A stretch of 32,000 bases of DNA from Halomicrobium mukohataei DSM 12286 (GCF_000023965.1 NC_013202.1:570001-602000), one strand, 5' to 3'; counted from the stretch's first letter, positions 5,815 to 24,971 are shown. Notes: generated by a model from the letters alone, not told the origin. A program made the numbers and translations.

Positions 5815-6555
5815 TCACGCCGACTCGGCGGCCTCGTAGGTGACCTTGACCTGTGCCGTCACCGTGACCGGTCCGCTGTCGATGTCGGTGCTGGCACCGT
5901 CTCCGGCCGCGGTCGCCGTCGCTTCGGCGGCGTAGGGCCGGTAGCCCCGGTCGACGGTCGTGACGGTCTCGACGCCCTCGATCGTCAGGTCCGCCCGCTC
6001 GGCGATCGTCGTCGCCTTCGTCTCGGCGCGGTCCATCGCGCCCTCCAGGGCCTGTTCTTCGAGTTCGTTACGGCGGTCGGCCGACAGCGTGAACTCGACG
6101 TTGTCGACGTCGTTGGCACCGTTCGCGACGGCCGTGTCGATCACGGAACCGGCCTTGCTGGTGTCGTTGATGGTAATCTCGAAGGACTGGCGGGCGACGT
6201 ATCGGGGCTCGGGGTCCTCCGTTTCGGAGGGCGGGCGGCGGTAGTCCTGCCCGATGTCGTACCCGTTGGTCCGCACCTGTGCGCCCTCGATGTCGGCGAG
6301 GGCGTCTCGAAGCTGGGTGACGTTGTCGGCGAGTTGCTGTCGAGCGGTCGCGGCGTCGCCGGCACGCGTCTCGACGCCGACGCGCACGACGGCCTGGTCG
6401 GGCTGGGCGCTGACCGCGCCGGTCGCGCCCACGTCGACGGTTCGGTTGTCGGTGGCAGCTGTCTGTGCGCTGTCGCCGGCACCGAGCGCGCCCGTACAGC
6501 CACTGAGGAGTACGAGCGTCGCCAGCACGGCGACCGCGGGGAGTGAACGTCGCAT
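5815..6555 (-). CDS. SIMPL/DUF541 domain lipoprotein
   Basis: Signal peptide with lipobox (LVLLSGC). The remainder resembles SIMPL-domain proteins (VRVGVE...A...N...L...L; VTAQVKVTYE at the C-terminus). Confidence 0.72.
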   Translation of the reverse strand: MRRSLPAVAVLATLVLLSGCTGALGAGDSAQTAATDNRTVDVGATGAVSAQPDQAVVRVGVETRAGDAATARQQLADNVTQLRDALADIEGAQVRTNGYDIGQDYRRPPSETEDPEPRYVARQSFEITINDTSKAGSVIDTAVANGANDVDNVEFTLSADRRNELEEQALEGAMDRAETKATTIAERADLTIEGVETVTTVDRGYRPYAAEATATAAGDGASTDIDSGPVTVTAQVKVTYEAAESA

Positions 6556-6619
6556 ACACGGTCACCGACGACCCCCATCTTCAAAGCCCTCGGGGACGGT
6601 CAAAACCCAGTTTGAACGA

Positions 6620-7900
6620 TCAGCCGGCCTGATCGACGGTCACGAAACGGATCTCCGTCGTCACGTCGCGGTCCGCGATCCGGTCGGCCACCGCGTCGAT
6701 GTCGTCTGCGAGCGTCGGGAACGTCTCGCCGGGCGGGACGCCGACCGTGACGACGACGCGGGTCGGCTGCTGGAACACCGCGGTGTTGGTCTGCTGGACT
6801 TCGATCTCCAGCATCGTCGCGCCGGCCTCGGCGACGATCTCGCCGGCCTCGGATCGGATCTGTTCTTCGGTGCTGGCCCGTTCGAACGTATCGAGCGTGA
6901 CGCCGCCGAGAAACGCCGAGAGGACCAGGATGGAGACGACGAGAACGCCGATCCGGGAGGCCGTGGCGCTCTTTGCCTCGTCGGTCCGGAACCACTGGCT
7001 CGGCTGGTACCCCTTGTACCACAACACGACGAGCGCCGCGAGGTTGATCGAGAGGACGTTGACGGCGAGCAACACCGCAGAGCCAAGCGAGACCAGGGGT
7101 TGGCCCCACGCCATGCCGATGCCGACCGTCGCAGCCGGCGGGATCAGCGCGACGGCGATCATCACGCCCACCAGCGCGGTCGAGACACCAGACGAGAGAC
7201 TGACGACGCCCGCGACCCCCGCACCCAGCGCGACCACCAGCGAGAGGAAGTCCGGGGCGACGCGCTCGCGGATCTCCGGGATCGACGTGACGTCCGCGAG
7301 CGGCGGGATGAGATGGACCGAACGCACGAGGAAGGCAAAGAGGCCGGCGCTGACGACGGCCAGCACGAGCCCGATCAACTGGAGTTTGACGCCCCGTCGG
7401 AACATCTCCTGGTCGTCCATGACGGTGCCGACGCTGGTCGCCATCGCCGGGCCGATCAGCGGCGCGATCACCATCGAGCCGACGACGACGGCGGGCGAGT
7501 CGAGCAAGAGCCCCGCCGTCGCGATCAGCGCGCTGACGACCGTCATGACGACGTACGTCGAAAAGGCGGGTGCCATGTCGCTGGCTCTGGCAGTCAGTTC
7601 CTCGCGAGCGATCCGGTCCTCGTCTTCCTCCTCGTCGTACCGTTCCTGGAGTTCGTCGAACTGGCGGGAGATGACGGTGTTGGCGTCGACGATCACCGTG
7701 TACCCGTCCTCGTCGATCCCGACCGCTCGGAGCTGTTCGAGCACCGGCTCGACGGCCGCACTGGGCAGCGGGAAGTACGCGACGCCGGTGTACTCCCGAC
7801 CGCTCGTCTCGTCGTTGACGACGTAGTCGATCCCCTCGTCGTCCAGTGCCCGGAGGATGGCGTCGCGCTTGCCCGCCGGTATCGTGACCTGTACGAGTCG
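6620..7900 (-). CDS. DUF389 / TIGR00341 family membrane protein
   Basis: The N-terminal soluble domain starts VRLVQVTIPAGKRDAILRALDDEGIDYV (GTG at 7900; the listed 7930 start is TTG). It is followed by multiple TM helices with the LIGPAMA motif typical of DUF389. Confidence 0.75.
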   Translation of the reverse strand, partial: RLVQVTIPAGKRDAILRALDDEGIDYVVNDETSGREYTGVAYFPLPSAAVEPVLEQLRAVGIDEDGYTVIVDANTVISRQFDELQERYDEEEDEDRIAREELTARASDMAPAFSTYVVMTVVSALIATAGLLLDSPAVVVGSMVIAPLIGPAMATSVGTVMDDQEMFRRGVKLQLIGLVLAVVSAGLFAFLVRSVHLIPPLADVTSIPEIRERVAPDFLSLVVALGAGVAGVVSLSSGVSTALVGVMIAVALIPPAATVGIGMAWGQPLVSLGSAVLLAVNVLSINLAALVVLWYKGYQPSQWFRTDEAKSATASRIGVLVVSILVLSAFLGGVTLDTFERASTEEQIRSEAGEIVAEAGATMLEIEVQQTNTAVFQQPTRVVVTVGVPPGETFPTLADDIDAVADRIADRDVTTEIRFVTVDQAG

Positions 7901-7972
7901 CACGTCACGTGCTGTGAGCCCGAGGAGCAAAAGACGGTGGGGTCCGAGCGTCGAGCGCGACCGCCGTGGCGT

Positions 7973-10900
7973 CTAGTTCCCGTAGCGGTTCCGCATGTCG
8001 AGTGCGTCGACCAGCTCGGTGTTCTGTTCGAGGCTGTCCATCTGCGTGCGGAATTCGAGGTGCAGCGTGTCGAGCATCACGTCGACCAGATCGTCGACAG
8101 GCCAGTCGTACTGGCTGGGACCCGTGACGTTCCCGTAGGTCATCGAGAACTTCTGGTTGGGGTAGAGGACCCGGTACATGTACGGGTTGTCGTGGTGGGT
8201 GACACGAATGGCGTACGCCGACAGCGGCGCGTCGGTCCCCTCGAAGGGTCCCGGCTTGGCCCCGTCGGGCAGTGCCACCTCGATCACGTCGCGCTGTGGG
8301 TGGCCCACCGAGAAGTTCTTGCGCTGTGCGTTGTCGTACGAGAACTGGTCCAGCCCAGTGGCCTCTTTCGACGGGGCGACGTACCACATGATCGCGCCGT
8401 CGATCAGCAGCGGCACCTCGGTGCGGTTCTCGAAGATCAGCGACGTGTCGAACAGCCAGCCGTCGCCGTGGAGTTCGGCGGTCGCTTCCACCGGGGCGTT
8501 TGCGGTGAAACCGTCGCCGAGGCTCTCGCCCGTGACCGGGTGGACCTTCTCCGTCGTGGCCTCGATGATCGGGTTGTCGGTGTTGTTGTACTGGCTGTCG
8601 CTGACGCCGCTGCTCCACTCGACCCGGTCGGGCTGGAGGTAGTCGTCGTCGAACTGCTCGCCGCTTGGCCAGGCGTCCTGGACCAGCACCGAGGGGTCGT
8701 TGTTCGCCGCCACCGGCCCCGCGTCGGCCGTCAGGCCGCCGTCCCGTCCGCCGCCGTCGTTGAACGGGATCGGTTCGGTCTCCTCGGGCAACCCGACGAC
8801 CCAGGGCATGATCCGGGCGTTGTTCTCTCGGGGCACGCCCGCCGCGTCGAACTGCTTGACCAGTTCGAGCCCGCGGTCGCCCAGCGCTCCGAGTTGCATC
8901 GAGCCGTCCCCGGCGTTGTTCTGGATCGCGTCGACGTCGGCCCCGTACTCGCTGGCGTCGCCGTTCAGCTCGTTTTTGAGCAGTCCCTGGACGCCGCCTT
9001 CGGTGTAGGTAGGGTTGAAGTCCTCGTCGTACGCGGGGTAGAACTCTTCGAGCGTCGTGCTGGCGGTGATGTCGCTGCCGTCGCCGACCTGGACCGTCGT
9101 CGTCGTGGTGGCGGTCGCGCCGCCGTCGTCGGTGACCGTCAGTTCGACGCTGTAGGCCCCCGAACCGGCGTAGGTGTGGGAGGCCGTCTCGCCGGTGGCC
9201 GTCGAGTCGTCACCGAACGCCCACTCGTAGGACGCGATCGAGCCGTCCGGATCCGAGGACTCCGAGGCGTCGAAAGAGGCCTGTTCACCGGGTGCCGGCG
9301 AAGCGGGATCGACGGAGAACGACGCCGTCGGCCCCTCGTTGACCGAGCCGACCGTGATGTCGGTGCTGGTCACGGCCGACGCGCCGCCGTCGTCGGTGAC
9401 CGTCAGCTCGACGGTGTACTCGCCCGCCTCGGCGTAGGTGTGAGAGGCCGTCTCGCCGGTGGCCGTCGAACCGTCGCCGAAGTCCCACTCGTAGGACGCG
9501 ATCGAGCCGTCCGCGTCCGAGGACTCAGAGGCGTCGAAGCTGACTTCCTGGCCGGGGTCCGGATTGGCCGTATCGATCGTCAGGCCCGCCATCGGCGGGG
9601 CGTTCCCGTCGATCGCGAGGTCGCCGACCATCGACTCCGGATGGACCGTACAGATGTACTCGACCATCTCCTCGGTGGCCTCGAACTCCAGGGTGCGGCT
9701 CTGGCCTTCCTGGCCGACCCGCTCGGTCGCCAGCAGCTCCTCGCCAGCGGCGTTGCGGATCACGAGATCGTGGGGGATCCCGTCGACGTTGTTGTAGGTG
9801 AACGCGTAGGACTCGCCGGAGGTCAGCGAGATCGTCGGGTTCCGCTCGCCCTCGATGGCTGCCGGTTCGGCACCGAGCCAGCCGTCGATGCTGCTGTCGA
9901 TCGTGATCTGGGTCGGGTTGTCGGCGTCGCTGATCGACACCGTCGTCGACGTGCTGTCGGTCGCGCCCGCGTCGTCGGAGACCGTCAGCGTCACGGTGTA
10001 ATCGCCAGCATCGGCGTAGCCGTGGGTCGCCACCTCGCCGGTGGCCGCCGAGCCGTCGCCGAAGTCCCACTCGTAGGACGCGATCGAGCCGTCCGCGTCC
10101 GAGGACTCCGAGGCGTCGAAGGTGATGTCCTCGCCGGGTGCGGGCGCGCTCGCGTCCGTCGTGAACGACGCGGTCGGTGCCTCGTTGGTGTCGCCACAGG
10201 CACCCTCGTTCTCCCAGGGACCGTACTCGCTGGAGCCGGGTTCGTCACCCGAGGTCCACCAGCTGGCTTCCCACAGATCGCCGTCGTAGGTGACCTGATC
10301 GCCGCCGGTGTAGGTCGCGTCCGCGTCCCAGGCGTCGACGCCGTCACAGCTGCCGCCGTCCGAGCCGGTACCCGAGACCGTGACGGTAGTGTCGTTCGAG
10401 TCGCTGGCACCGTCGTCGTCGGTGACGGTCAGCGAGACGGTGTAGTCGTCCGCCGTCTCGTAGGTGTGGGTGACGGACTCGCCGGTGGCCGTGGCTCCGT
10501 CGCCAAAGTCCCACTCGAAGCTCGCGAGCGAGCCGTCCGAGTCCGAGGAGCCGGCCGCGTCGAAGCTGACCGTCTCCCCGGTATCGGGCTCGGCCGGATC
10601 GACCGTGAACGAGGCGTCGGGTGCCACGTTCGACCCCTCTCCGACGGCGACGGTCTTGGTCGCCGTGGCCGGTGCCTCCTCGTCGTCTCGGACGATCAGC
10701 GTGACCGTGTACTCGCCCTCGGCGTCGAAGCTGTGGGTGACGGTCTCGCCCGTCGCGGAGTCGCCGTCGTCGAAGTCCCACTCGTAGGACGCGATCGAGC
10801 CGTCCGCGTCCGAGGACGCCGACGCGTCGAAGCTGACCGTCTCGCCCGGTGCGGGCGAGCGTACGTCCATCGTGAACGACGCCGTCGGCTCCTCGTTCTC

Positions 10901-11146
10901 CTCGTCACAGTCGTGCTCGCGGGTCCAGGCCCCGAGGTCGGCGTCGGGTTCTCGCTGGGTCCACCACTCGGCGGTCCACAGCGCGCCGTCGTAGACGACC
11001 TGGTCGCCGCCGCTGTAGGTTGCGCTCGAATCCCAGTCGGGCGCGTCGCAGTGGCCCGAATGTGCTGCTGCGGTCGAGCTCGCACCGAGTGCGAGCGCCG
11101 ACAGTGCCGATGCTTTCCGTAACAGATCGCGTCGTGTGTGTCTCAT
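7973..11146 (-). CDS. Tat-secreted multidomain protein: CBM5/12 - PKD - PKD - CBM5/12 - PKD - cupredoxin - PKD - PKD - unknown ~370-aa C-terminal domain (1057 aa)
   Basis: ATG at 11146 gives MRHTRRDLLRKASALSALALGASSTAAA, a twin-arginine signal. There are two Y.GGDQV.YDG.LW.A.WWT modules (chitin-binding type) and five repeats with the PKD signature (F.A..S.D.DG.I.SY.WDFGDG..A.G....H.Y...G.Y.V.LTV.D). One blue-copper-like module is present. The C-terminal domain is not recognisable by eye. Confidence 0.88.
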   Translation of the reverse strand: MRHTRRDLLRKASALSALALGASSTAAAHSGHCDAPDWDSSATYSGGDQVVYDGALWTAEWWTQREPDADLGAWTREHDCDEENEEPTASFTMDVRSPAPGETVSFDASASSDADGSIASYEWDFDDGDSATGETVTHSFDAEGEYTVTLIVRDDEEAPATATKTVAVGEGSNVAPDASFTVDPAEPDTGETVSFDAAGSSDSDGSLASFEWDFGDGATATGESVTHTYETADDYTVSLTVTDDDGASDSNDTTVTVSGTGSDGGSCDGVDAWDADATYTGGDQVTYDGDLWEASWWTSGDEPGSSEYGPWENEGACGDTNEAPTASFTTDASAPAPGEDITFDASESSDADGSIASYEWDFGDGSAATGEVATHGYADAGDYTVTLTVSDDAGATDSTSTTVSISDADNPTQITIDSSIDGWLGAEPAAIEGERNPTISLTSGESYAFTYNNVDGIPHDLVIRNAAGEELLATERVGQEGQSRTLEFEATEEMVEYICTVHPESMVGDLAIDGNAPPMAGLTIDTANPDPGQEVSFDASESSDADGSIASYEWDFGDGSTATGETASHTYAEAGEYTVELTVTDDGGASAVTSTDITVGSVNEGPTASFSVDPASPAPGEQASFDASESSDPDGSIASYEWAFGDDSTATGETASHTYAGSGAYSVELTVTDDGGATATTTTTVQVGDGSDITASTTLEEFYPAYDEDFNPTYTEGGVQGLLKNELNGDASEYGADVDAIQNNAGDGSMQLGALGDRGLELVKQFDAAGVPRENNARIMPWVVGLPEETEPIPFNDGGGRDGGLTADAGPVAANNDPSVLVQDAWPSGEQFDDDYLQPDRVEWSSGVSDSQYNNTDNPIIEATTEKVHPVTGESLGDGFTANAPVEATAELHGDGWLFDTSLIFENRTEVPLLIDGAIMWYVAPSKEATGLDQFSYDNAQRKNFSVGHPQRDVIEVALPDGAKPGPFEGTDAPLSAYAIRVTHHDNPYMYRVLYPNQKFSMTYGNVTGPSQYDWPVDDLVDVMLDTLHLEFRTQMDSLEQNTELVDALDMRNRYGN
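9083..10891 (-). repeat. array of five PKD-module coding repeats (~255-260 nt each) with near-identical core segments
   Basis: A core of ~45-58 nt (GTCCCACTCGTAGGACGCGATCGAGCCGTCCGCGTCCGAGGAC...GCGTCGAAG) recurs at 9482-9540, 10064-10122 and 10775-10832. More diverged copies lie at 9220-9274 and 10508-10566. Confidence 0.85.
9608..9913 (-). other. cupredoxin (halocyanin/plastocyanin-like) domain embedded between PKD repeats 3 and 4
   Basis: ...GIPHDLVIRN...(39 aa)...YICTVHPESMVG supplies the His, Cys-x2-His-x3-Met type-1 copper ligand pattern. The Cys codon (ACA on the + strand) is at 9650-9652. Confidence 0.7.
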
Positions 11147-11339
11147 AGTATCCCCCAAACTGCGTGCTGATTCCGCTGCGATGCCCCCCACCAACCATCA
11201 GCTTCTTTGAACCGGTACCTTTATTCTTCAAGTAGCTACGGAATATTGCTATATATAGATTTATGACTAGTATTTGTGGCCGTTTAATTAAGTCGCGTTG
11301 AGACGTGCGGGCCGGTGGCAGCCGGCCCGGCCCGTCACC

Positions 11340-12587
11340 TCACCGCTCGACGCCGGCCGGACCGGCCGCGAACTCGCCGCGGGCCGGTTCGGGGACGTAG
11401 TCGGCGAGGTCGGCGTCGTCGAAGTCGACGCGCTCGCCGCGTTCGGCCGCGAGATACGAGGCCGCGACGAGTTTCGCCACGTCCAGTCCGTCCCGGAGGT
11501 CCTCGCGTGCGTTCTCGCCGGCCCGGAACGCCGAGACGACGTGCTCGTTCTGGTCCAGGTAGCCGTAGGTCGCGCCCTCCTGGGGGAGCACCGGCATCTT
11601 CCCGCGGTCGGCGGCCTGTTTCTCGACGACGTAGCCCGCGCCCTCGGCCGCGCGGTCGGAGAAGAACACGTCGGTGCCCGATTCCAGCGTGTTGATCGTC
11701 CCCGAGTACTCCGGGCCGAGCAGTTCGATCGTGATCCGCAGCCCCGAGCCGACGAAACACCAGGAGTTGGTCGCCTCGCCCACCACGAGGTCGCCCTCGG
11801 GGGTCTCGTAGAAGACGCTCGCGGAGGCGTAGTCCTCGCCGGGCGTCTCGTGGTAGTCCACGTCGTACTCCGCGGCCAGCTCGGCGGCGTAGTCGTCCCG
11901 GCCCCACTTCAGCGTCGAGATGTCGCAGGTGACCGCGATCGGCTCCAGATCGTCCTCGCCGGGCCGACTGAGGAGGTGCCTGTTGACCTTGTGGGAGTGA
12001 CACATCATGTCCGAGAGGACGCCGCCACCCTGCCGTTCGGGGTCCCAGAACCACGACGAGTGGGGACCCGCGTGTTCCTCGGCCGAGCGGGCGAGATACG
12101 GTCGCCCGGCACCCTCGGCGGAGTCCCACAGCAGCTCCTTCATCCGGTCGACGCCCGGCATGTACACCTGGTTTTCGAGGTAGGCGTGGTTCAGCTCGGT
12201 CTCCTCGACCAGGTCGACGATTCGCTGGGCCTCGCCGACAGTGCGGGCGAGCGGTTTCTCCATCGCGATGCCTGCGAGGTCGGCTCCGCCCTGCTGGATC
12301 TCCTCGACGATCGCCTCGACCGTCTCGACGCGGGTGTGGTTGGGCGAGGTGACCCAGACCGCGTCCACGTCTTCGTGGCCCACCAGTTCGCGCACGTCCC
12401 CCGTCGCGATCGGGTCCCCACTGCCGGCCTCGCGGCAGGCGTCCGCGACCGCCTCGGCCTTGCTGACCGTCGGGTTCATCACGCCCGTCACGTCCGCGTC
12501 GCGAATGCGTTCGAAGGTCGCCGCGTGGAACTCCCGTGTGATGAAACCGGCACCCACGAAGCCGACGCCCAGTCTGTTCGTTGCCAT
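11340..12587 (-). CDS. Gfo/Idh/MocA family NAD(P)-dependent oxidoreductase
   Basis: N-terminal Rossmann motif LGVGFVGAGFITREFH, EKP motif (IAMEKPLA), 415 aa. Close paralogue of the partial gene at 31315-32000. Confidence 0.85.
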   Translation of the reverse strand: MATNRLGVGFVGAGFITREFHAATFERIRDADVTGVMNPTVSKAEAVADACREAGSGDPIATGDVRELVGHEDVDAVWVTSPNHTRVETVEAIVEEIQQGGADLAGIAMEKPLARTVGEAQRIVDLVEETELNHAYLENQVYMPGVDRMKELLWDSAEGAGRPYLARSAEEHAGPHSSWFWDPERQGGGVLSDMMCHSHKVNRHLLSRPGEDDLEPIAVTCDISTLKWGRDDYAAELAAEYDVDYHETPGEDYASASVFYETPEGDLVVGEATNSWCFVGSGLRITIELLGPEYSGTINTLESGTDVFFSDRAAEGAGYVVEKQAADRGKMPVLPQEGATYGYLDQNEHVVSAFRAGENAREDLRDGLDVAKLVAASYLAAERGERVDFDDADLADYVPEPARGEFAAGPAGVER

Positions 12588-12653: not shown

Positions 12654-13802
12654 CTACAGGTCGATCGATCGAGACACCGACGCCTCGGCGATCTCCTCGG
12701 CGGTGACCTCGCGGCCCCGTTCGGCCGAGAGGTAGATTCCCTCCATCACGAGCATGGAGTTGAGCGCGATCTCGTCGGTCCGGATCTGGTCGACCTCGCC
12801 GCGGACGGCCGCGACGAAGTGGTCGTACTGGTTCGGGCGCTCGTCGACCTCGTAGCCGCTCTCGCCCCGAATCAGTCCGTGACGGGTCTCGAAGCCGTCC
12901 ACGTCGATCTCGACGGTCGTCTCGTAGTCGTTCATCGTCGTCAGGAGTTCGACCGGATCGAAGGCGATCCCGCCCTGGCTGCCGACGACGACGCCGCGCT
13001 CGTCTGGCTGGTAGGCGTGCCAGGCGGCCCGCACTTCCAGGCGAGAGCCGTCGGCCAGTCGGGCCGCGCCGGTGCCGGCGTCCTCCACGTCGTGGCCGGA
13101 CTCTTCGAGACGCTTCCGGTAGAGCTCGGCGTTGTCGCCGGTCAGCTCCTCGCCGAGGCTGTCGTCGGTGTAGTCGAACGTCTGGCCGTTGACGCGCTCG
13201 ACGGCGGGGTTGCCCAGCAGGTAGAGGTTGCGACCGATCTCGTAGGTGCCGATGTCGAAGACCGGCCCGCCGCCGGCCGACTCCTTCGAGACGAACGCGG
13301 GCGTCCCGTAGCCGTCGACGTACGGGCGACCACGCCGCCGAGAGTACACCGACCGGGCGAACGAGACCTCGCCGAGATCGCCCGATTCGACGAAGGTCCG
13401 TGCCGCCTGCGTCTCCGGCGTCAGCAACTCGACGTTCTGGACCGCCAGGAGCTTGTCGGCCGCATTGGCCGCGTCGACGATGTTCTCGGCGTCGGTGTAG
13501 CTGCCGGCCAGGGGCTTCTCACAGAAGACGTGCTTGTCGGCCTCGAAGGCGGCGACCGCCATCGGCTCGTGGAGGTTGTTGTGGACACAGACGTTGACCA
13601 CGTCGATCTCCGGATCGTCGAGCATCGCCTCGAAGTCCTCGTAGACGTCCGGAATCCCGAACTCGTCGGCCAGCTCTCCCGCGGCCTCCGTGTCGATGTC
13701 CGCGATCGCCTTGACGGTCGCGCCGTCGACGCCTCGATACTTCCGGATGTGTTCTTCGCCTCGATTCCCCGCGCCGATGATGCCGATAGTGACTGTCTCC
13801 AT
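12654..13802 (-). CDS. Gfo/Idh/MocA family NAD(P)-dependent oxidoreductase
   Basis: METVTIGIIGAGNRGEEH Rossmann motif and the CEKPLA motif. 382 aa. Confidence 0.85.
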   Translation of the reverse strand: METVTIGIIGAGNRGEEHIRKYRGVDGATVKAIADIDTEAAGELADEFGIPDVYEDFEAMLDDPEIDVVNVCVHNNLHEPMAVAAFEADKHVFCEKPLAGSYTDAENIVDAANAADKLLAVQNVELLTPETQAARTFVESGDLGEVSFARSVYSRRRGRPYVDGYGTPAFVSKESAGGGPVFDIGTYEIGRNLYLLGNPAVERVNGQTFDYTDDSLGEELTGDNAELYRKRLEESGHDVEDAGTGAARLADGSRLEVRAAWHAYQPDERGVVVGSQGGIAFDPVELLTTMNDYETTVEIDVDGFETRHGLIRGESGYEVDERPNQYDHFVAAVRGEVDQIRTDEIALNSMLVMEGIYLSAERGREVTAEEIAEASVSRSIDL

Positions 13803-14670: not shown

Positions 14671-16680
14671 TCACTCCGGGTCGAGACGCGTGACGGTGAG
14701 GTGTTCGACGGTCGACCGGGCCAGTTCTTCGGGCTGGACGCTACAGACCGTGGTGCCGACCCGGACGGGGTCGGTCAGCTCGACGCGGCGCTGGTCGAGT
14801 GGCCGCCACGACCGACCGTCCGTCGAGCAGTAGATCGTCAGCGTGTCCCCGACCCGGTCCAGGCGGTACCACGGGGCATCGAGCGACGACTCTTCGAGGT
14901 GGCGGGTCGTCCCGCCCTCCCCTCGGCTCGTCCGCCAGTCGATTTTCGTCCCGTGGCCCGCGGTGAGCCCGACGTGTCCGTACGACGCCTCGTCGTCGAG
15001 TCCGTCTCTGATCATCAGCCCGGCGGTGCTCCACTCGTTGGCACCGTCGAGGTCGGTGAACTGCCCCTCGATCCGGACCGGCCCGTCGACGCTGGCACAG
15101 CGGAAGTGAAACTCGTTCCACTCGCCGTAGATGTTCTTCCCGGAGCCGGAGACGTGCCACTCGTCGCCCTCCAGCGTCGACTCGCCCGCGACGATCACGT
15201 CCCCGACATCGATCCCGTCGGTGAGCGAGAACGTCTCTTCGGCGGTCGGCACGACCGAGGGATCGGAGACCACGAGCGCGTTCCGGAGTTCGACGCGGGC
15301 CCCACCGGCCCAACTCTCCGTGAGAGAGAGCTCCCAGTTGCGCTGTTCGGCGATGTTCGTGACGATGCTCAGCCCCGTTCCGGTGCCGGTTCTGGTCGTC
15401 GTGTACCCGTCTTCGAGGACGCGCTCGCGTTCGGCCTCGGGGATGCCGGGGCCGTCGTCGGCGACGTACAGCCCGCCGGATGGCAGCGGCCCGACGCGGA
15501 CGGTCACGCCAGAGCAGCCGTGGTCGACCGCGTTCTTGAGCAGGTTTTCGAGGACCGGCCGGATGCTCGACCGAGGCGCGTTGACGACGGCGTCCGCCCC
15601 GAACTCGATCTCCAGCGACGCGGCGTCGAAGCCGACCAGTTCCCACACGTCCTCGAGGAGGTCGGACAGCGACACCGGACTCGACTGTCCGACGCCGACC
15701 CCCTCGGGCGAGAGCGACGAGTTCTCCAGGACCGTCTGCGTGAGATCGTCGAGGATCTCGTCGATGCGCGTGATCGCCTCGCTGGCCTGTTCGAGCGTCG
15801 TCACGTCGCCGGTCTCGCGGGCCAGGGCGATCCGGCCGCTGGCGATCTGAATGGGGCTCTTCACGTCGTGTCGGATCGACCGGACGAACTCCTCCATCCG
15901 TTCGTCCTGGCACTTCAGGCGCTCGCGTCGCTCGACGATCTCCGTGACATCGCGAGTCCAGCCGACGAGTCCGACGACCTCGCCGTCGTGTTTCCAGGGC
16001 AGTTTCGTCGTCCACGACCAGTGGGTGCCGTCGGGCGTCGTGTAACTCGCCTCCTTGTCGTAGATCGGTTCGCCCTCCTCGATGACCCGGAGATCGTCCT
16101 CGTAGGACGCGAGGGTGTTGTCCGACTCTCCGTACACCTCCACGTCGGTTTTGCCGATGAACTCCTCGGAGCTGAAATCGCCCGGACTCGTCGACTTGCG
16201 GAGGTGACGAGCCGCGCGGTCCTTGACGTACACCGCGCCCTCGACGCCGTCGAGAATCGCCCTGAACATGCTACTCTCAGCGGCCTGGTCGCGGCGGCGT
16301 TCGTACCGGTCGACGGCGGCGGCGAGGCGATCGGGCAGGTCGTCCTCGTCGAGGACGATCTCGCTCGCACCGACCTGCGTGGCGCGTGCTGCCGTCCGAC
16401 CGGCCGAGTCATCGAGCGACAGGAGGATGGGGCGGTGCTCGTCGACCGCGTGAATCCGTTCACACGCCTCGACGACCGACGCGTCGGTCGGGGCTGCCGT
16501 CACCAGCACGCAACCCACGTCGCGGCGGTCCGACAGCGTCGCGAGTGCGGCCTCGACGCTGTCGACGACGACGACGACCTCGTCGAACGAACCCGCCGAG
16601 CCAGACCGGACTTGAGCCACCGCCCGCTCGCGTCCGCCGACCACGAGAACCGTGGTCGGGTCACTCAGTAAGTCGTCCAT
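14671..16680 (-). CDS. soluble sensor histidine kinase: degenerate receiver - PAS - HisKA - HATPase_c - extra C-terminal beta-sandwich (ConA/DUF1349-like) domain
   Basis: H-box SIRHDVKSPI, N-box ENLLKNAVDH, G1 ADDGPGIP, G2 GTGTGLSIV. A PAS-like segment lies upstream. There are no TM segments. About 200 aa follow the ATPase domain. Confidence 0.85.
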   Translation of the reverse strand: MDDLLSDPTTVLVVGGRERAVAQVRSGSAGSFDEVVVVVDSVEAALATLSDRRDVGCVLVTAAPTDASVVEACERIHAVDEHRPILLSLDDSAGRTAARATQVGASEIVLDEDDLPDRLAAAVDRYERRRDQAAESSMFRAILDGVEGAVYVKDRAARHLRKSTSPGDFSSEEFIGKTDVEVYGESDNTLASYEDDLRVIEEGEPIYDKEASYTTPDGTHWSWTTKLPWKHDGEVVGLVGWTRDVTEIVERRERLKCQDERMEEFVRSIRHDVKSPIQIASGRIALARETGDVTTLEQASEAITRIDEILDDLTQTVLENSSLSPEGVGVGQSSPVSLSDLLEDVWELVGFDAASLEIEFGADAVVNAPRSSIRPVLENLLKNAVDHGCSGVTVRVGPLPSGGLYVADDGPGIPEAERERVLEDGYTTTRTGTGTGLSIVTNIAEQRNWELSLTESWAGGARVELRNALVVSDPSVVPTAEETFSLTDGIDVGDVIVAGESTLEGDEWHVSGSGKNIYGEWNEFHFRCASVDGPVRIEGQFTDLDGANEWSTAGLMIRDGLDDEASYGHVGLTAGHGTKIDWRTSRGEGGTTRHLEESSLDAPWYRLDRVGDTLTIYCSTDGRSWRPLDQRRVELTDPVRVGTTVCSVQPEELARSTVEHLTVTRLDPE

Positions 16681-17302: not shown

Positions 17303-19513
17303 TTATTTCGCCGTGCCACGCGAGCGAACGATCTCGTCGACGAGCGAGACGGCCCGATCGGCCGCCGCCTCGTCGACCGTGCCGGCGTAGCGAGCCCGTT
17401 CTCTGATCGATGCCACCTCGCGTGCGCGCTCGTCGGCGTCGACGGCGTCGAGATACGCTCGGACGGTCTCCTCGGCACGGCGCGGCCGGTCGTGTTCGCG
17501 CCCCAGATGGTACACGAGCCGCTGAAAGGCCCGCTCGGCGTCTCGCTCGGGGGTCGACCGGGGCTGGTAGTAGAGCCACACGCCCCGGTAGACGCGCCGG
17601 CCCAGATCGCTCCGGCGCACGCCGATCACGGTCCCGACGATCGCGAGCAGTCCCAGTGCCGCCTCCCGACGGGACGGCAGCGAACTGGTCGGGCCGGGCC
17701 GGTCCGTCGTCGCACCGACAGTGTCGGTGGGGGACTCGCCGACCCGCGTCGCGGTCGAGATGCTGTCTTCCGGGTTGACGCCGGGACGACTCTGGGGACC
17801 GAGCGGCGTTCCCCCGGCGTCGGTATCGTTGTCGACCGGCGTGAGCGGCTGTGGGGTCGCCGTCGGCGTCGGCGACCACTCCGGGCCGCCGCTCTCGTTG
17901 GTGTCGACGGACGGGCGGTCTCGTTCGCGGGCCGACTCGACGTTCCGGTCGCGGGCGCTCTCTCGGTCGCTGGCCGGCGTCGGGTCGAACCGGACCCAGC
18001 CGTACTCTTCGAAGTAGACCTCGACCCAGGCGTGGGCGTTCTGTCCGCGCACGACCCATCGATCCTCGGCGACCCGTTCGCCGGACGTGTAGCCGACGGC
18101 CATCCGCGCCGGGATGTCCTGTGTCCGCAGCATCGTCGCCATCGTCGTCGCGTAGTAGGTGCAGTAGCCGGCCGACATCTCGAAGAGGAAGGCGTCGGCG
18201 ACGTTACCGTCGGGACGGCGCACGTCCAGCGAGTACTCGCGGTTGTTCTCCAGCCAGTTTTCGATCGTCAGCGCCGTCTCGTAGGGCGTACGCGCGTCGC
18301 GTGTGAGCCGCTCGGTCCGCTCGCCGACGCGGTCGGGCGTGCTCGCGGGCAGTTGCGTGTACGTCTCGTTGACTCGCGCGGGGTAGGCACGCGTGGTGTC
18401 GTTGAGCTGGGCGGGCGTGGCCGCGGGGACGGCACTGGTGACGCGATAGCTGTCGCCCTCTCGAATGGGTGCGCCGGTCGCGAGGCCCCCGTCGCCGCCG
18501 ACGCGTGTGGCGGGGTTGCCACGGCTCTGGATCGGCTTCCAGGCCGCCGGCATCACCCCGGCGTCCGTTTCGGCCCGGAAGCGCTGCTCGACGATCCGGG
18601 TCGGGCCGGGCGGCTCGTCGAGTCGGTCACCGCCGTACGCGCGGCTGTTGGTCTGACTGACCCACCCGTCACCGGTGTACCGGTCGAAGCTCCCGATCCG
18701 CCAGTAACGAGGCTCGCTGCTGGTGACGGTAAAGCGGACCTCGGGCGAGAGGCTGATCGAGCCCTGGACCGAGAGCTGGTCGCCGCTCTGGAGGAGACTC
18801 GCCTCGACCGTGTCCGAGCCGGTGCCGTCGACGTTCAGCGACAGCCCCGCAGTGGCGGGGACGACCGACACCAGCGACGGGACGACGACCATCAGCGCGG
18901 CCGTCACGAGGATCGTCTCGGCGTCGACGATCGGTTCGCCGCGGCGGTCGAAGTCGCCAAAGCCAAGCGCCGCCACCGCGGCGACGACGCCCGACAGCGT
19001 CGTCAGCAGGTCGGCGTCGCCGGTCAGGACCAGGAACCCCAGCGTCCCGCCCGCCGCGGCGACGGACAGGGCATAGCGGCGTCGCATCGCGAAGTACCAC
19101 GTCAGGAAGGTGGGCGCGGGCGTGACACCGAGCACCCACGCCCGAATGTTGGTGATCCGCAGGAGCGTGTTGCCAGTCAGCAAGGAGAGCGTGTCGGTCA
19201 GCAACTCCCCGATCCGCGGCGAGCCGCTCAGTTGCTGGACGTACCACCAGAGCCCGACCAACAGGAGGACGCCGCCGAGCGCGACGGCACTGCGCGGGGG
19301 CAGGAGACGGGCCAGCACCGTCGCGGCGACCAGCGAGGCGGCGACGACCGCCAGAAACCGCGACGGGAGCCCGACCACGTCGATGAAGAAGTACAGCACT
19401 TGCAGCGTCGAGAGGAGCATCGCCGCGACCGCGACCAGCGCCGCAGTCCGGGTCCGTCCGGGGACGCCGTCGACGGCGGGCCAGCCGAGCCCCAGCCGAC
19501 CTGCCGTGCTCAC
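17303..19513 (-). CDS. transglutaminase-like membrane protein (DUF3488-like N-terminal TM region, TGase core, DUF4129-like C-terminus)
   Basis: The GTG at 19513 overlaps the TGA of the upstream DUF58 gene (GTGA). Multiple N-terminal TM helices are present. The catalytic triad context is AGYCTYYAT ... NAHAWVEVY ... FDPTP. The listed ORF extension to 20425 runs through the DUF58 gene and is rejected. Confidence 0.8.
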   Translation of the reverse strand: MSTAGRLGLGWPAVDGVPGRTRTAALVAVAAMLLSTLQVLYFFIDVVGLPSRFLAVVAASLVAATVLARLLPPRSAVALGGVLLLVGLWWYVQQLSGSPRIGELLTDTLSLLTGNTLLRITNIRAWVLGVTPAPTFLTWYFAMRRRYALSVAAAGGTLGFLVLTGDADLLTTLSGVVAAVAALGFGDFDRRGEPIVDAETILVTAALMVVVPSLVSVVPATAGLSLNVDGTGSDTVEASLLQSGDQLSVQGSISLSPEVRFTVTSSEPRYWRIGSFDRYTGDGWVSQTNSRAYGGDRLDEPPGPTRIVEQRFRAETDAGVMPAAWKPIQSRGNPATRVGGDGGLATGAPIREGDSYRVTSAVPAATPAQLNDTTRAYPARVNETYTQLPASTPDRVGERTERLTRDARTPYETALTIENWLENNREYSLDVRRPDGNVADAFLFEMSAGYCTYYATTMATMLRTQDIPARMAVGYTSGERVAEDRWVVRGQNAHAWVEVYFEEYGWVRFDPTPASDRESARDRNVESARERDRPSVDTNESGGPEWSPTPTATPQPLTPVDNDTDAGGTPLGPQSRPGVNPEDSISTATRVGESPTDTVGATTDRPGPTSSLPSRREAALGLLAIVGTVIGVRRSDLGRRVYRGVWLYYQPRSTPERDAERAFQRLVYHLGREHDRPRRAEETVRAYLDAVDADERAREVASIRERARYAGTVDEAAADRAVSLVDEIVRSRGTAK

Positions 19514-20487
19514 GAGACACCCTCCGCGACCAGCGGATTGTCGCGCGTGGTCGTCAGTTCCGTCAGTTCGTGGACGGCGTCGCCGAGCGAGACGGTCACG
19601 CCCGTGGCGTCGGCACGGACGCGTACGTCGGCCCGGTTCCAGGCGGTCTCGTCGACGTCGCCGCTGCTCGTCCGCGCGAGGAGTTCGAGCGCCCGCTGGC
19701 GGTGGCGCTGGCCGCCGCCCGCCTCGATCGAACCGGCCGGGACCGTCATCGCGGTGGTCAGCCCCGCTCGGAGCGCGCCGACGAGGACCGTCGCCGCGCC
19801 AGCGGCCATCTCGTCGGCGTGACCCTCGGTCGACCGTGCCGCGATCGAGATCCCCTCGCCGCCGACGGGATCGGAGAACTCCGTCACCAGCAGGTCGTCG
19901 TGTTTGGCGCTCGACTTCCAGTGGACGTCTCGCAGCGAGTCGCCGGGCACGTACTCGCGGAGTCGGTCGAACTCGCTGCGCTGGCCGCTGTCCAGTCCCA
20001 GCGTCCGCTCGAAGGTCGCGCCGCCCAGTGAGTAGACCGCCGGATAGACGACGACCTCCGTGCGCTCGGTGACCTCGTGGCGCTGTTCGACCAGCCCGAG
20101 CACGTCCCGGACGGCGACGGTCGTCCGGGAGAGTTCGTAGACCCCGCGTGCGTCGTACCTGAGGTCGTAGCTGACCGTCGCCGGCAGCGTCCGCTCGAAT
20201 TCGGCCGCCGCCGACAGGCCGTCGGCGAGCCCCTCGGTGATCGTCGCGACGCCGCGTCCCTCGACCGTCAGCGAGACGGTCCGGGACTCGCCGGGAAAGC
20301 CACGACGGGGTTGGCTGCGCTCGACCGTCGGTGCCCCCGCCCGTGTCACCTGGAGCGCGCCGACCGCGAGGGCGATCGACAGCGGCGCGGCGACGGCGTT
20401 TAGCGACCGCGGGCCCGACAGCCACGCCATCGTCACTGCCAGTCCCACGACGGCGAGCGTCGCGGCGCCGCGGCGTGTCGGTCTCAT
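19510..20487 (-). CDS. DUF58 domain protein
   Basis: Two N-terminal TM helices followed by EFDRLREYVPGDSLRDVHWKSSAK, the DUF58 signature. The ATG overlaps the moxR stop (ATGA). Confidence 0.82.
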   Translation of the reverse strand: MRPTRRGAATLAVVGLAVTMAWLSGPRSLNAVAAPLSIALAVGALQVTRAGAPTVERSQPRRGFPGESRTVSLTVEGRGVATITEGLADGLSAAAEFERTLPATVSYDLRYDARGVYELSRTTVAVRDVLGLVEQRHEVTERTEVVVYPAVYSLGGATFERTLGLDSGQRSEFDRLREYVPGDSLRDVHWKSSAKHDDLLVTEFSDPVGGEGISIAARSTEGHADEMAAGAATVLVGALRAGLTTAMTVPAGSIEAGGGQRHRQRALELLARTSSGDVDETAWNRADVRVRADATGVTVSLGDAVHELTELTTTRDNPLVAEGVS

Positions 20488-21446
20488 TCTTCGATCGGGA
20501 CAGTGTCGAGAGCCGTCCGGACCAGCCCCGCGCCGGTCTGTTCGGCGGTGTCGGTTCGGATGCGGTGGGGCAACACGACGCGTGCTTCCGCGCGCACGTC
20601 GTCGGGGACGACGTAGTCTCTGCCGTCCAGTACCGCGCGGGCCTGTGCCGCCCGCAAGAGCGCGATGCTCCCGCGCGGGCTCACGCCCAGTTGGCCGTGT
20701 TCGCGGGTGTAGCGTGCCAGCCGCGTCGCGTACTCGCGAAGCGGCGCTTCGATCGTCACGTCCGAGACCGTCCGCTGAGCCCGGCGAAACTCCTCGACGC
20801 TGGCGACCGGCGAGAGGCGCTCGATCGGGTGGTCGCTGACGACGCGAGCGAGCATGGCCGCCTCGTCGTCGGCGCTGGGGTAGCCGAGGTGGAGCTTCTT
20901 CATGAAGCGGTCCAGCTCCGCCATCGGGAGCGCGTATGTCCGGTTCTGCTCGACGGTGTTCTGGGTCGCGATGACGGTGAACGGATCTGGCACGTCCCGC
21001 GTATCCCCGTCGACCGTGACCTGCTCTTCTTCCATCGCTTCCAGCAGCGCCGACTGGGTCTTGGGCGGCGCGCGGTTGATCTCGTCGCCCAGGACGACGT
21101 TCGCGAAGATCGGTCCCTCCTGGAAGGTGAACGTCTCGGTCTGCTGGTTGTACACGTTGACGCCCGTCACGTCCGACGGCAACAGATCCGGCGTGAACTG
21201 GACGCGCTTGAAGCTACCGTCGAAGGAGGCCGCGACGGCCTTCGCCAGCATCGTCTTGCCGACGCCGGGAACGTCCTCCAGTAGGATATGGCCCCGCCCC
21301 AGCATCGCGGTCAGGATGTGCTCGATCTCCTCGTGGTGGCCGACGATGACCCGCTCGACGTTCTCGATGACCTGGGTCGCGACTCGGTTCGCCTCGCCGA
21401 GGGCAGAGTCGGAGTGGGACCCTCGTGATGTGTCGGTATCTGTCAT
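20484..21446 (-). CDS. MoxR-family AAA+ ATPase
   Basis: ATG at 21446. Walker A EDVPGVGKT, Walker B VLGDEINRAPPKTQSALLEAMEE, then VIATQNT and LDRF motifs typical of MoxR. Confidence 0.9.
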   Translation of the reverse strand: MTDTDTSRGSHSDSALGEANRVATQVIENVERVIVGHHEEIEHILTAMLGRGHILLEDVPGVGKTMLAKAVAASFDGSFKRVQFTPDLLPSDVTGVNVYNQQTETFTFQEGPIFANVVLGDEINRAPPKTQSALLEAMEEEQVTVDGDTRDVPDPFTVIATQNTVEQNRTYALPMAELDRFMKKLHLGYPSADDEAAMLARVVSDHPIERLSPVASVEEFRRAQRTVSDVTIEAPLREYATRLARYTREHGQLGVSPRGSIALLRAAQARAVLDGRDYVVPDDVRAEARVVLPHRIRTDTAEQTGAGLVRTALDTVPIEE

Positions 21447-21649
21447 TGTTGTCAGTGTCCACCGCAGGCGCGCTGTCACGGGACCACGCCCCGGCAGTGG
21501 CCCCGTCGGCGGACGGCCTGGGACTGCCGTCGCCGGGCGCGATGCCGGTCGTGGCCCCTCCTTAGGGATCAGCGCTTGTAATACTGCTGCCTGTTACCAC
21601 GACACGCATACGACCGCAGACAGACGACACGGTCCGCCAGACCGTCGAG

Positions 21650-23118: not shown

Positions 23119-23192
23119 GCCGCCTTAGCTCAGACTGGGAGAGCACTCGACTGAAGATCGGGCTGTCCCCGGTTCAAATCCGGGAGGCGGCA
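23119..23192 (+). tRNA. tRNA-Phe (anticodon GAA)
   Basis: Hand-folded cloverleaf. Acceptor GCCGCCT/AGGCGGC, D arm GCTC-AGACTGGGA-GAGC, anticodon arm CTCGA-CTGAAGA-TCGGG, variable loop CTGTC, T arm CCCGG-TTCAAAT-CCGGG, discriminator A. CCA is not encoded, and TTTT follows immediately. Confidence 0.95.
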
Positions 23193-23293
23193 TTTTCCTG
23201 CGACCGAAGGGAGCAGTGAAAATGCTCCCGAGCGGATTTGAACTAGACCGAGATTCTGCGAGCGGAGCGAGCAGGGTCTCGGGCGTAGTTCAC

Positions 23294-23310
23294 AATCCGG
23301 GAGGCGGCAT
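23294..23310 (+). repeat. direct repeat of the tRNA-Phe 3' end (att-like); partner copy at 23177-23193
   Basis: AATCCGGGAGGCGGCAT is identical (17/17) at 23177-23193 and 23294-23310. Similarity extends 5' (GTTCA-AATCC vs GTTCACAATCC) with a 1-nt indel. Confidence 0.6.
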
Positions 23311-23482
23311 ACCCTTCTCGGTTTACATGCCGGAACGACATTCCCCCTTAGCCGGGGGTCTGTCCGGGGGTGGTCAGCGTGACCGATTCCGACCCCGTAG
23401 AACGCGACGACGGAGTCGATTCTCCCGACGCGAACCTCAGGGAAGAGAGCCTCGAAACTACGGTCAGGCGCTGTCTGCACGG

Positions 23483-24859
23483 ATGGACGCACTCTCGAAG
23501 CAAGTCTCGGGGCTCCGCGAGGAACGACACGACGAGCGAGAGCAACGAGACGAGTTAGAGGACGAGCTGGACGCGCGCGACGAGCGAGTCGACGAACTCG
23601 AAGCGGAAGTCGCGCGACTGGACGCACGAGCGGTGGTGAAAGAGGAGAGCGACTACGACGATGTCGACGCCGACGAGCACCGCAAGGAGATCGAAGCCAT
23701 CGCGCTGCAGCTCTTCGGCGGCTGGGCACACGAGTATCCCGACGGAAGCCGCGACCGCGGCGACTGGCACATGCTCCTACTCGGGGACCCCGGCTGTGGG
23801 AAGTCCACGTTCCTCCGCTACGTCGATCAGATCGCACCGCGGTCGACCTACGCCTCGGGGAAGGGTGCGACGGCGGCAGGCATGACCGCGGCGGCGGTCG
23901 CTGACGACTTCGGAGATACAGAATGGGGGCTGGAAGCCGGTGCGCTGGTGCTGGCCGACGGCGGGATCGCCTGCGTCGACGAGATCGACAAGATGCAGTC
24001 CGATGCAGTGTCCTCGATGCACGACGCTCTGGAGAGCCAGCAGGTCCACGTCAACAAGGCGGGGATCAACGCCACGCTGAACGCTCGCACCTCGTTACTG
24101 GCGGCAGGGAACCCGAAGAACGGCCGCTTCGAGCGCTACCGTCCGAAGGGCGAACAGATCGACATGGGGCCGACGCTCCTCTCCCGGTTCGACCTGATGT
24201 TCATGATGTCCGATCAGCCCGATCGGGAAGACGACGCCGAAGTCGTCGAGTACATGCTCCAGAGTCGGCAGGCTGCCGGTCGGCATACCCGTGGGGAGGA
24301 GCTGAGTGACGAGGAACAGCAACGGGTCGAACCGGCGATCGATCGAGCGGTGATGCGGGCCTACGTTGCTTACGCCAAGCAGACCTGCCGTCCGATCATC
24401 GAGGATGAGGAGGTTGCGGAGCGACTGAAGCAGTTCTTTGTCGAGTTCCGAGCGAGTGCTGGTGAACAAGATGACGATTCGCCGATTCCGCTGACGTTCA
24501 GGAAGGTCGAGGCCATACAGCGGCTGGCAGAGTCCAGTGCACGGGTTCGGCTTTCGGATATCGTGGAGATTGAGGATGTAGAGAGGGCAATTATGCTTGT
24601 GACGAAGTCGATGAAGCAGGTGGGGTACAATCCTGAGGAAGGTGAGTTTGATGCAGATATTATCGAGACAGGACAGTCGAAAAGTCAACGAGAACGGCGT
24701 GAGACAATTCTGGCTATTGTAGAGGAACTGGATGGGGCGACAGTGGAAGAGATTGCTCAGAGAGTGGAATTCGACCAACAGTTACTCAAGCACGATATTG
24801 AAATTCTGAAGGAGGCGGGAAGGATTCATCTAATGGACGGCAAGTTCCGGAAAGCGTAG
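23483..24859 (+). CDS. MCM-family AAA+ ATPase with C-terminal winged helix, lacking the MCM N-terminal (OB-fold/Zn-finger) domain; a short coiled coil precedes the ATPase (458 aa from ATG 23483)
   Basis: Walker A LLLGDPGCGKST, Walker B GIACVDEIDKM, sensor-1 LLAAGNP, Arg finger SRFDL, and GLEAGALVLADGG (MCM-specific). The C-terminal ILAIVEELDGATVEEIAQRV...EAGRIHLMDGKFRKA segment is wHTH-like. The N-terminus MDALSKQVSGLREERHDEREQRDELEDELDARDERVDELEAEVARLDA is coiled-coil-like. The listed ORF start at 23216 is Arg/Gly-rich and runs over the att repeat. Confidence 0.8.
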   Translation: MDALSKQVSGLREERHDEREQRDELEDELDARDERVDELEAEVARLDARAVVKEESDYDDVDADEHRKEIEAIALQLFGGWAHEYPDGSRDRGDWHMLLLGDPGCGKSTFLRYVDQIAPRSTYASGKGATAAGMTAAAVADDFGDTEWGLEAGALVLADGGIACVDEIDKMQSDAVSSMHDALESQQVHVNKAGINATLNARTSLLAAGNPKNGRFERYRPKGEQIDMGPTLLSRFDLMFMMSDQPDREDDAEVVEYMLQSRQAAGRHTRGEELSDEEQQRVEPAIDRAVMRAYVAYAKQTCRPIIEDEEVAERLKQFFVEFRASAGEQDDDSPIPLTFRKVEAIQRLAESSARVRLSDIVEIEDVERAIMLVTKSMKQVGYNPEEGEFDADIIETGQSKSQRERRETILAIVEELDGATVEEIAQRVEFDQQLLKHDIEILKEAGRIHLMDGKFRKA

Positions 24860-24891
24860 CAGGCAGTGTGATCGTACTATATCTGAGTTCC

Positions 24892-24897
24892 TTTTTT
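24892..24897 (+). terminator. oligo-T tract downstream of the MCM-like gene
   Basis: CCTTTTTTATT lies about 35 nt after the TAG stop. Oligo-T is the established archaeal intrinsic termination signal. Confidence 0.4.
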
Positions 24898-24935
24898 ATT
24901 GTGTCTTGGAATAGATCGCAGGGTGATAAGTTCTC

Positions 24936-24948
24936 TTAAGTATTATAT
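24936..24948 (+). promoter_or_regulatory. TATA box for the 619-aa ORF
   Basis: TTAAGTATTATAT is centred about 28 nt upstream of ATG 24972, spacing expected for a leaderless or very short-leader haloarchaeal mRNA. Confidence 0.45.
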
Positions 24949-24971
24949 GCGGTGTCCAATGTTTAGGAGAT

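Follow-up and report, generated by a model that had tools for sequence, protein, structure and literature searches.

What is the function of a secreted haloarchaeal protein that joins chitin-binding modules, a blue-copper module and a large C-terminal domain lying outside the catalogued protein families? This question is raised by a single gene in a 32,000-nucleotide stretch of the Halomicrobium mukohataei DSM 12286 genome (GCF_000023965.1, NC_013202.1:570001-602000), hereafter the window, in whose numbering positions are given unless another locus is named. The gene occupies a minus-strand open reading frame (ORF) at 7973-11194, and its ATG at 11146 starts a product of 1057 amino acids (aa) that is identical to the one annotated by NCBI on CP045142.1 (assembly GCA_009217585.1). 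An earlier examination of the window, hereafter the original prediction, suggested that this product could be a redox-active polysaccharide-processing enzyme or a surface-anchored electron shuttle. The polysaccharide part of the first proposal is upheld by our analysis: the C-terminal domain, which we call X, very probably plays an auxiliary role in chitin and cellulose systems. The redox mechanism fares less well, being suggested by one lineage-specific cupredoxin fusion.

From its N-terminus, the protein consists of a signal peptide, a carbohydrate-binding module (CBM) of family 5/12, two PKD repeats, a second CBM5/12 module, a third PKD repeat, the cupredoxin, two further PKD repeats and X, which map as follows.

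7973-11146, minus strand: whole gene, encoding the secreted modular protein of 1057 aa (ORF and NCBI product; stop codon at 7973-7975)
11060-11146, minus strand: signal peptide of the twin-arginine translocation (Tat) type, aa 1-29 (MRHTRRDLLRKASALSALALGASSTAAA), read by eye from the sequence
10901-11059, minus strand: CBM5/12 module 1, aa 30-82, between Cys33 and Cys80 (Pfam CBM_5_12 and CBM_5_12_2; PDB match to the endoglucanase Z CBM)
10631-10894, minus strand: PKD repeat 1, aa 85-172 (Pfam PKD_4/PKD)
10355-10615, minus strand: PKD repeat 2, aa 178-264 (Pfam PKD)
10187-10351, minus strand: CBM5/12 module 2, aa 266-320, between a Cys pair (Pfam CBM_5_12, best stretch aa 272-311; PDB matches to chitinase CBMs)
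9920-10183, minus strand: PKD repeat 3, aa 322-409 (Pfam PKD, PDB)
9587-9919, minus strand: putative cupredoxin (type-1 copper) module, aa 410-520 (sub-threshold profiles and ligand pattern)
9347-9586, minus strand: PKD repeat 4, aa 521-600 (Pfam PKD, PDB)
9077-9337, minus strand: PKD repeat 5, aa 604-690 (Pfam PKD, PDB)
7976-9070, minus strand: C-terminal X domain, aa 693-1057, 365 aa (family profile; no Pfam match)

The order of modules initially proposed is the one found here, and the positions then given to the two CBMs (10907-11050 and 10196-10348) and to the cupredoxin (9608-9913) all land on the mapped modules. Pfam recognizes PKD in five stretches (E 9e-121) and CBM_5_12 in two (E 6e-15), while searches of NCBIfam and of PDB sequences with the whole protein return PKD domains of collagenase type, CBMs of chitinases and a weak match to amicyanin. 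The second CBM5/12 module shares 28 of 53 residues with the first. The N-terminus, in which MRHTRRDLLRK is followed by a hydrophobic stretch and AAA, is by eye a typical haloarchaeal twin-arginine signal, and equivalent RR N-termini are present in all relatives. Together, the Tat-type signal and the two CBM5/12 modules bear out the view of a secreted, chitin-targeted protein. Tat export is the default secretion route in haloarchaea; consequently, the signal says nothing about cofactors and is uninformative where it had been taken as a hint of one. Nor does the proposed surface anchoring find support, as the protein sequence shows neither a transmembrane segment nor a lipobox nor a C-terminal sorting signal, its C-terminus being X itself, which ends in ...RYGN. 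Putative cleavage after AAA (ATA in orthologues) would give a mature start His-Ser-Gly-His-Cys (aa 30-33, 11048-11059), the His30 of which, ahead of CBM5/12 module 1, is kept in the eight Halomicrobium orthologues and not in other genera. These orthologues form a cluster (n = 8; H. katesii, H. mukohataei, strains LC1Hm, HM KBTZ05 and IBSBa, and two metagenomes; at least 92% identity) in which every member is 1057 aa long and belongs to Halomicrobium. A plus-strand ORF at 6254-11122 (1622 aa) was rejected as a gene: it overlaps in antisense and is rich in Arg, Gly and Asp, as is typical of antisense frames in high-GC DNA.

X has no match in Pfam, NCBIfam or PDB sequences, whether searched as a single sequence or as a profile. 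With the X alignment as a profile, PDB sequences gave chance-level matches alone (E > 1), and no characterization of the domain was found in the literature searched. A word-indexed search retrieved 31 relatives, all from Halobacteria; for many of the strains concerned, the isolation substrate had been chitin, cellulose, xylan or mannan. When 1.84 billion representative proteins were searched exhaustively with an HMMER profile, 24 X proteins were detected, among them the H. katesii orthologue (P0034; 508 bits, E 2e-147), whose X domain is 97% identical to that of the window protein. Scanning 185,579 species genomes (one per species) revealed 34 X loci, mostly in Halobacteria; those found elsewhere include Herpetosiphon aurantiacus, Bacillus caseinilyticus and an Actinomycetota metagenome-assembled genome. 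To judge from these searches, X is a very small family without prior characterization, in agreement with the unfamiliar C-terminal domain of the original prediction.

An AlphaFold2 (AF2) model of X built from the family alignment (predicted local distance difference test score [pLDDT] 85, predicted template modelling score 0.88) places an N-terminal helical part before a beta-sandwich. Compared with the PDB by Foldseek, this model has no counterpart over its full length. It is best matched by CBM3 modules, which align with the sandwich half over ~150-180 columns (probability 0.95-0.98, root-mean-square deviation 6-9 Å) with TM-scores of 0.2-0.25 on the query and 0.4-0.5 on the target. X differs from CBM3 in being more than twice as large, in its extra helical subdomain and in a His/Gln/Asp/Arg signature foreign to CBM3; the structural resemblance is partial, and Pfam reports no PF00942 (CBM3) match in X. 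The model also lacks the TIM-barrel form of the glycoside hydrolase (GH) family GH18. No PF00704 match was obtained, and six haloarchaeal GH18 domains used with phmmer miss the window gene.

The universal signature of the family reads F..N, G-H-P-Q-x-D, R...H..P...R, N and, at the very C-terminus, R-x-x-N. Numbered within X, the positions that never vary, whether in long archaeal, long bacterial or short bacterial members, are F188, N215, G256-H257-P258-Q259-x-D261, R289, H293, P296, R300, N350, R362 and the C-terminal N365. All invariant positions are present in the window protein, which the profile matches over ~365 aa. In the model, His257, Gln259 and Asp261 occupy alternate positions near where one predicted strand begins; if X has a metal or active site, they are, together with His293 and three Arg, its most obvious candidates. 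The short bacterial homologues (P0048-P0052, 235-446 aa) consist of the beta-sandwich half of X alone and keep GHPQxD, R...H..P...R and the C-terminal R-x-x-N, one member carrying CBM2 and Big_7 in addition. This half with its signature defines a minimal core of the X family.

The fusion partners of X are, without exception, modules of the kind that binds crystalline polysaccharides. In close relatives (72-77% identity), which are 540-610 aa long, the layout is CBM5/12-PKD-X. The Halomicrobium protein is about twice as long as the closest of these, its extras being one CBM5/12 module, the cupredoxin and four PKD repeats that are 58-73% identical among themselves. Other partners of X are CBM2, CBM3 with fn3, CBM2 with a Cip1-like domain, or, in the X proteins of cellulose clusters, an unnamed N-terminal module of ~140 aa that has no Pfam match. 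The latter recurs at the C-termini of adjacent GH5/GH9 ORFs and also in stand-alone ORFs of ~250 aa just upstream of X genes (loci L005-L007 and L022-L042; e.g., L007 7477-9864, aa 654-796, and L005 9095-9865). Its occurrence on X proteins as well as on GH5/GH9 ORFs indicates a targeting module common to X and cellulases, and it is probably an undescribed haloarchaeal cellulose-binding module. The combination of CBM2, Cip1-like domain (PF21340) and X in one protein is that of P0036, a bacterial member of 852 aa, which thereby joins two orphan cellulose-associated domains. Cip1 is a cellulose-induced fungal protein of unassigned function, and P0036 is presumably the product of Herpetosiphon aurantiacus DSM 785 locus L036.

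The genomic context of X genes is similarly telling. With phmmer probes for the GH18, GH5 and GH9 catalytic domains, we detected one or more of these genes no further than 10 kb away, and in every case on the strand of the X gene, at 26 of the 34 X loci; two of the remaining eight have incomplete flanks. The X genes of Halococcus, Halobiforma, Natrarchaeobius and Natrinema are located within GH18 chitinase clusters, in the same orientation and together with sugar ABC transporters, while those of Natronobiforma cellulositropha, Halorhabdus and Salinarchaeum chitinilyticum come immediately after GH5/GH9 cellulase genes. The groups that recur among flanking ORFs are likewise GH5-type, GH18-type and ABC-transporter. 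The association of orthologues with polysaccharide genes that the original prediction called for is thus found, with GH18 clusters for close relatives and GH5/GH9 clusters for distant ones. In both chitin and cellulose systems, X looks to occupy the catalytic or functional-head position on the scaffolds of the neighbouring hydrolases and, because it shares their targeting modules and lies in their clusters, it would seem to be a functional head directed at crystalline chitin or cellulose. Two further neighbours, both with a link to redox chemistry, were each seen once: a PAP2/vanadium-chloroperoxidase-like gene that converges on the X gene of Natronobiforma cellulositropha (L005 11778-13682, minus strand), and a 2Fe-2S ferredoxin gene that follows the X gene of Salinarchaeum chitinilyticum (L007 11913-12245, plus strand).

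The segment assigned to the cupredoxins contains a complete set of candidate type-1 copper ligands, His459, Cys499, His502 and Met506, in the pattern His...Cys-x2-His-x3-Met. In a single pairwise BLASTP comparison with a hand-entered sequence of Paracoccus denitrificans amicyanin, it exhibits 27% identity over 95 aa (E 1e-4), and the four candidate ligands align with the four copper ligands of amicyanin. Copper-bind (PF00127) matches aa 438-512 with E 0.0029 and 18.4 bits, below the gathering score of 21.2, and TIGR02657 (amicyanin) reaches E 0.09 and 13.2 bits against a cut-off of 110. Like the small blue copper proteins (amicyanin, plastocyanin, halocyanin; PF00127), the module comprises ~100 aa, is predicted to be all-beta and shows the same ligand pattern, with 40 residues from His to Cys. 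Unlike them, it falls below the Pfam and NCBIfam cut-offs and is internal to a secreted protein of 1057 aa, whereas those proteins are free or lipid-anchored; its ligand loop is also one residue longer than that of amicyanin.

All four ligands are invariant in the eight orthologues, in line with the blue-copper domain first proposed. As too few substitutions separate the window gene from that of H. katesii to estimate dN/dS per module, column variability among the eight orthologues was used instead. Variable columns amount to 6 of 111 (5.4%) in the cupredoxin, the lowest value of all modules, with conservative changes only and none at a ligand, compared with 7.4% in X and 66 of 430 in the pooled PKD repeats (9-21% per repeat; cupredoxin versus PKD, Fisher p 0.0045). 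Given the fewest variable columns and the invariant ligands, the cupredoxin is, by this measure, maintained and not decaying. None of the outcomes that the original prediction named as refuting it has thus appeared: X lies outside known families, the copper ligands are intact and orthologues occur near polysaccharide genes.

We propose, as a reasonable though tentative reading of the whole, that the gene product is a Tat-secreted, chitin-targeted accessory enzyme of Halomicrobium in which two disulfide-bracketed CBM5/12 modules and five PKD spacers carry the X head. X would act directly on crystalline beta-1,4-glycans, in this case chitin, as an auxiliary to hydrolases, and its reaction site would be formed by the universal His257, Gln259, Asp261, His293 and Arg residues. 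In Halomicrobium, single electrons from the tethered cupredoxin would feed or activate the X reaction, which would imply an oxidative or redox-activated cleavage or modification of chitin. Taken by itself, a redox step in the X reaction is possible but rather doubtful. Halomicrobium, including strain LC1Hm, which carries the orthologue, grows on chitin (PMC7443923). A more far-reaching version would make X the catalytic module of an unrecognized metal-dependent oxidative class that cleaves crystalline chitin or cellulose, unrelated to the lytic polysaccharide monooxygenases (LPMOs) and filling their role in haloarchaea, the Halomicrobium protein being a fusion with its own type-1 copper electron-delivery module. 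We regard this version as unlikely; if true, it would constitute the first archaeal and the first cupredoxin-wired extracellular polysaccharide oxidase system.

Several findings weigh against an accessory enzyme with a cupredoxin-fed head. Among the X members examined, the cupredoxin is fused in the Halomicrobium proteins alone, so that X evidently works elsewhere without a fused electron carrier, and no conserved redox partner gene recurs beside X when the flanking ORFs of the 34 loci are clustered. At the Halomicrobium locus itself, the phmmer probes found no GH18, GH5 or GH9 gene. X starts at aa 693 and therefore has neither a free N-terminal His nor a histidine brace of the LPMO type. Since, moreover, Pfam reports no LPMO_10 (PF03067) match in the window protein and the top 50 Foldseek PDB matches listed for X include no LPMO structure, the domain is, as far as sequence and model comparison tell, not a canonical LPMO. 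In the model, its sandwich resembles that of CBM3, a non-catalytic fold. The cupredoxin assignment, for its part, consists of sub-threshold profile scores and a ligand pattern without a significant family match. The word-indexed search returned no homologues of this segment; its AF2 model is consequently a single-sequence one and weak (pLDDT 53, low confidence, seven strands). Cupredoxin-fold copper proteins dominate the Foldseek matches of this low-confidence model, with a three-domain Cu nitrite reductase, the laccase Lac15, auracyanin, a Nitrosopumilus cupredoxin and amicyanin at the top, none of them significant (E at least 0.028).

Such findings leave room for other explanations. It is a live possibility, on which we would nevertheless not rely, that X is a non-redox head, either a glycoside hydrolase or a non-catalytic binder or disruptor with a CBM3-like sandwich, and that the cupredoxin is an independent passenger. 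It would then either simply hold copper or, tethered to the substrate much like the bacterial proteins Cbp2D/Cbp2E, shuttle electrons to further secreted redox enzymes, for example an AA10 LPMO or an oxidase. The CBM3 matches and the absence of a redox module from every other family member fit this explanation. Long-form members conserve several Asp/Glu that could serve hydrolysis, but a single universal carboxylate, Asp261, is left once the short bacterial homologues are included. As for a binder, two invariant His, with Gln and Asp alternating on one strand, resemble a metal or active site more closely than they do the flat face of a binding module, and a further binding module would be redundant given that X replaces the GH domain on otherwise identical CBM-bearing scaffolds. 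A shuttle has documented counterparts in CBM-tethered electron carriers that serve separate LPMOs (PMC8981238, PMC10916295), and AA10 homologues, its potential clients, have been reported in some haloarchaeal strains only (PMC12343721).

Alternatively, the cupredoxin-like segment could be a structural spacer or a vestige without copper function, which would reduce the protein to a longer CBM5/12-PKD-X accessory protein. The Pfam score below threshold, the lack of homologues in the word-indexed search, the poor fold model and the position of the segment among Ig-like spacers of similar size would all suit such a spacer, and conservation carries limited weight in so shallow an orthologue set. 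We nevertheless consider it improbable, as the ligand pattern is kept in all eight orthologues with amicyanin-like spacing and the segment varies significantly less than the PKD repeats around it. Still less probable, to the point that we give it little credence, is a chitin adhesin or colonization factor devoid of enzymatic role, whose CBMs and PKD repeats would serve to keep cells or enzymes attached to chitin particles. Binding or spacer modules do make up seven of the ten, and the Halomicrobium gene lies outside chitinase clusters; however, the protein shows no visible cell anchor, the polar signature of X is deeply conserved in archaea and bacteria, and X takes the position of a catalytic domain within GH clusters.

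The accessory enzyme that we favour can be compared with known systems. AA10 LPMOs (e.g., CBP21) resemble X in being secreted accessory proteins with a beta-sandwich core, fused to CBM2 or CBM5/12 and encoded beside the chitinases and cellulases of the chitin and cellulose systems that they serve. In contrast to them, X is C-terminal and lacks a PF03067 match, and would therefore be a functional analogue at most. The original prediction also regarded an electron-transfer module joined to CBMs as a non-standard layout for a glycoside hydrolase; this is overstated, as bacterial precedents exist in Cbp2D/Cbp2E of Cellvibrio japonicus and TERTU_3803 of Teredinibacter turnerae (PMC10916295, PMC8981238). 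In these secreted proteins, which are required for growth on cellulose, CBM2/CBM10 are linked to electron-transfer as well as CAZy 'X' domains, and one of the domains is able to reduce an LPMO (PMC8981238, PMC10916295, PMC12542752). The window protein has the same layout, with its signal, two CBM5/12 modules and cupredoxin ligand set, in the sense of an architectural class and not of a homologous family: in both cases, CBMs for crystalline polysaccharides are joined in a secreted protein to a redox-cofactor domain and to a domain without assigned function. Yet the redox modules of the bacterial proteins are c-type cytochromes (X183) and X132/X158, whereas the one considered here is a type-1 copper cupredoxin; no similarity to cytochrome, X132 or X158 domains was seen in the sequence of the window protein, and the bacterial proteins have no sequence relation to the X domain described here. 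They are also bacterial and cellulose-directed, while the window protein is archaeal and chitin-directed and has its carrier fused to the putative functional head. CBM-appended domains without assigned function and CBM-tethered electron carriers are thus already known kinds; what is new here is an archaeal, chitin-directed representative with a cupredoxin in place of a cytochrome.

The immediate neighbours of the gene include a pair of oxidoreductase genes.

11340-12587 and 12654-13802, minus strand: two cytoplasmic Gfo/Idh/MocA oxidoreductase genes (Pfam), upstream on the same strand

As originally noted, both lie directly upstream in the same orientation; a linkage to X does not follow, as they are absent beside the X genes of other genera. 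Their synteny is kept in H. katesii, and their scores, far below every NCBIfam equivalog cut-off, mark them as generic. We rejected the pair as part of the system on account of these generic scores, the lack of signal peptides, a 193-bp gap between them and the gene, and their absence at other X loci. Another Gfo/Idh/MocA-like ORF is found at 31315-31950. Downstream, the gene is followed by DUF389, SIMPL and DUF1028 genes.

Other features of the window are recorded here in their own right. A histidine kinase gene (PAS, HisKA, HATPase; 14671-16680, minus strand) encodes a C-terminal extension of ~170 aa, unusual for a sensor kinase, with a sub-threshold match to the DUF1349/ConA-like glucanase type (28.7 bits versus 32.4). 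At 17303-21479 lies a minus-strand cluster of a MoxR-type AAA ATPase (20484-21479), a 325-aa ORF and a TgpA-like transglutaminase (17303-20425). A tRNA-Phe(GAA) gene (23119-23192) precedes an MCM-type helicase ORF (23216-24859) and, after it, a stretch of ~2 kb with 37-39% GC versus ~67% GC for the genome, in which a 619-aa ORF (24972-26831) has a weak NERD-nuclease match. The region 23119-26831 has the look of a foreign element integrated at a tRNA gene, or of what remains of one. A sulfatase-family gene (PF00884, E 3e-53; 27064-28437) comes immediately after the low-GC stretch.

The means by which haloarchaea attack crystalline chitin and cellulose are poorly understood. LPMOs were first noticed as CBM-attached accessory proteins of unclear function encoded beside hydrolases, and X genes repeat this early pattern in both respects. 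They form a compact, testable candidate family of ~30 genes with a short universal signature suited to mutagenesis, and one natural fusion points to an electron requirement. If this requirement is true, X would define a new auxiliary-activity family, provide a salt-adapted enzyme for chitin and cellulose processing and serve as a model for the supply of electrons to polysaccharide oxidation outside the cell in which small-molecule reductants play no part. Without redox activity, X would still represent a new module that acts on or binds polysaccharides, and the cupredoxin a CBM-tethered electron carrier of a new type.

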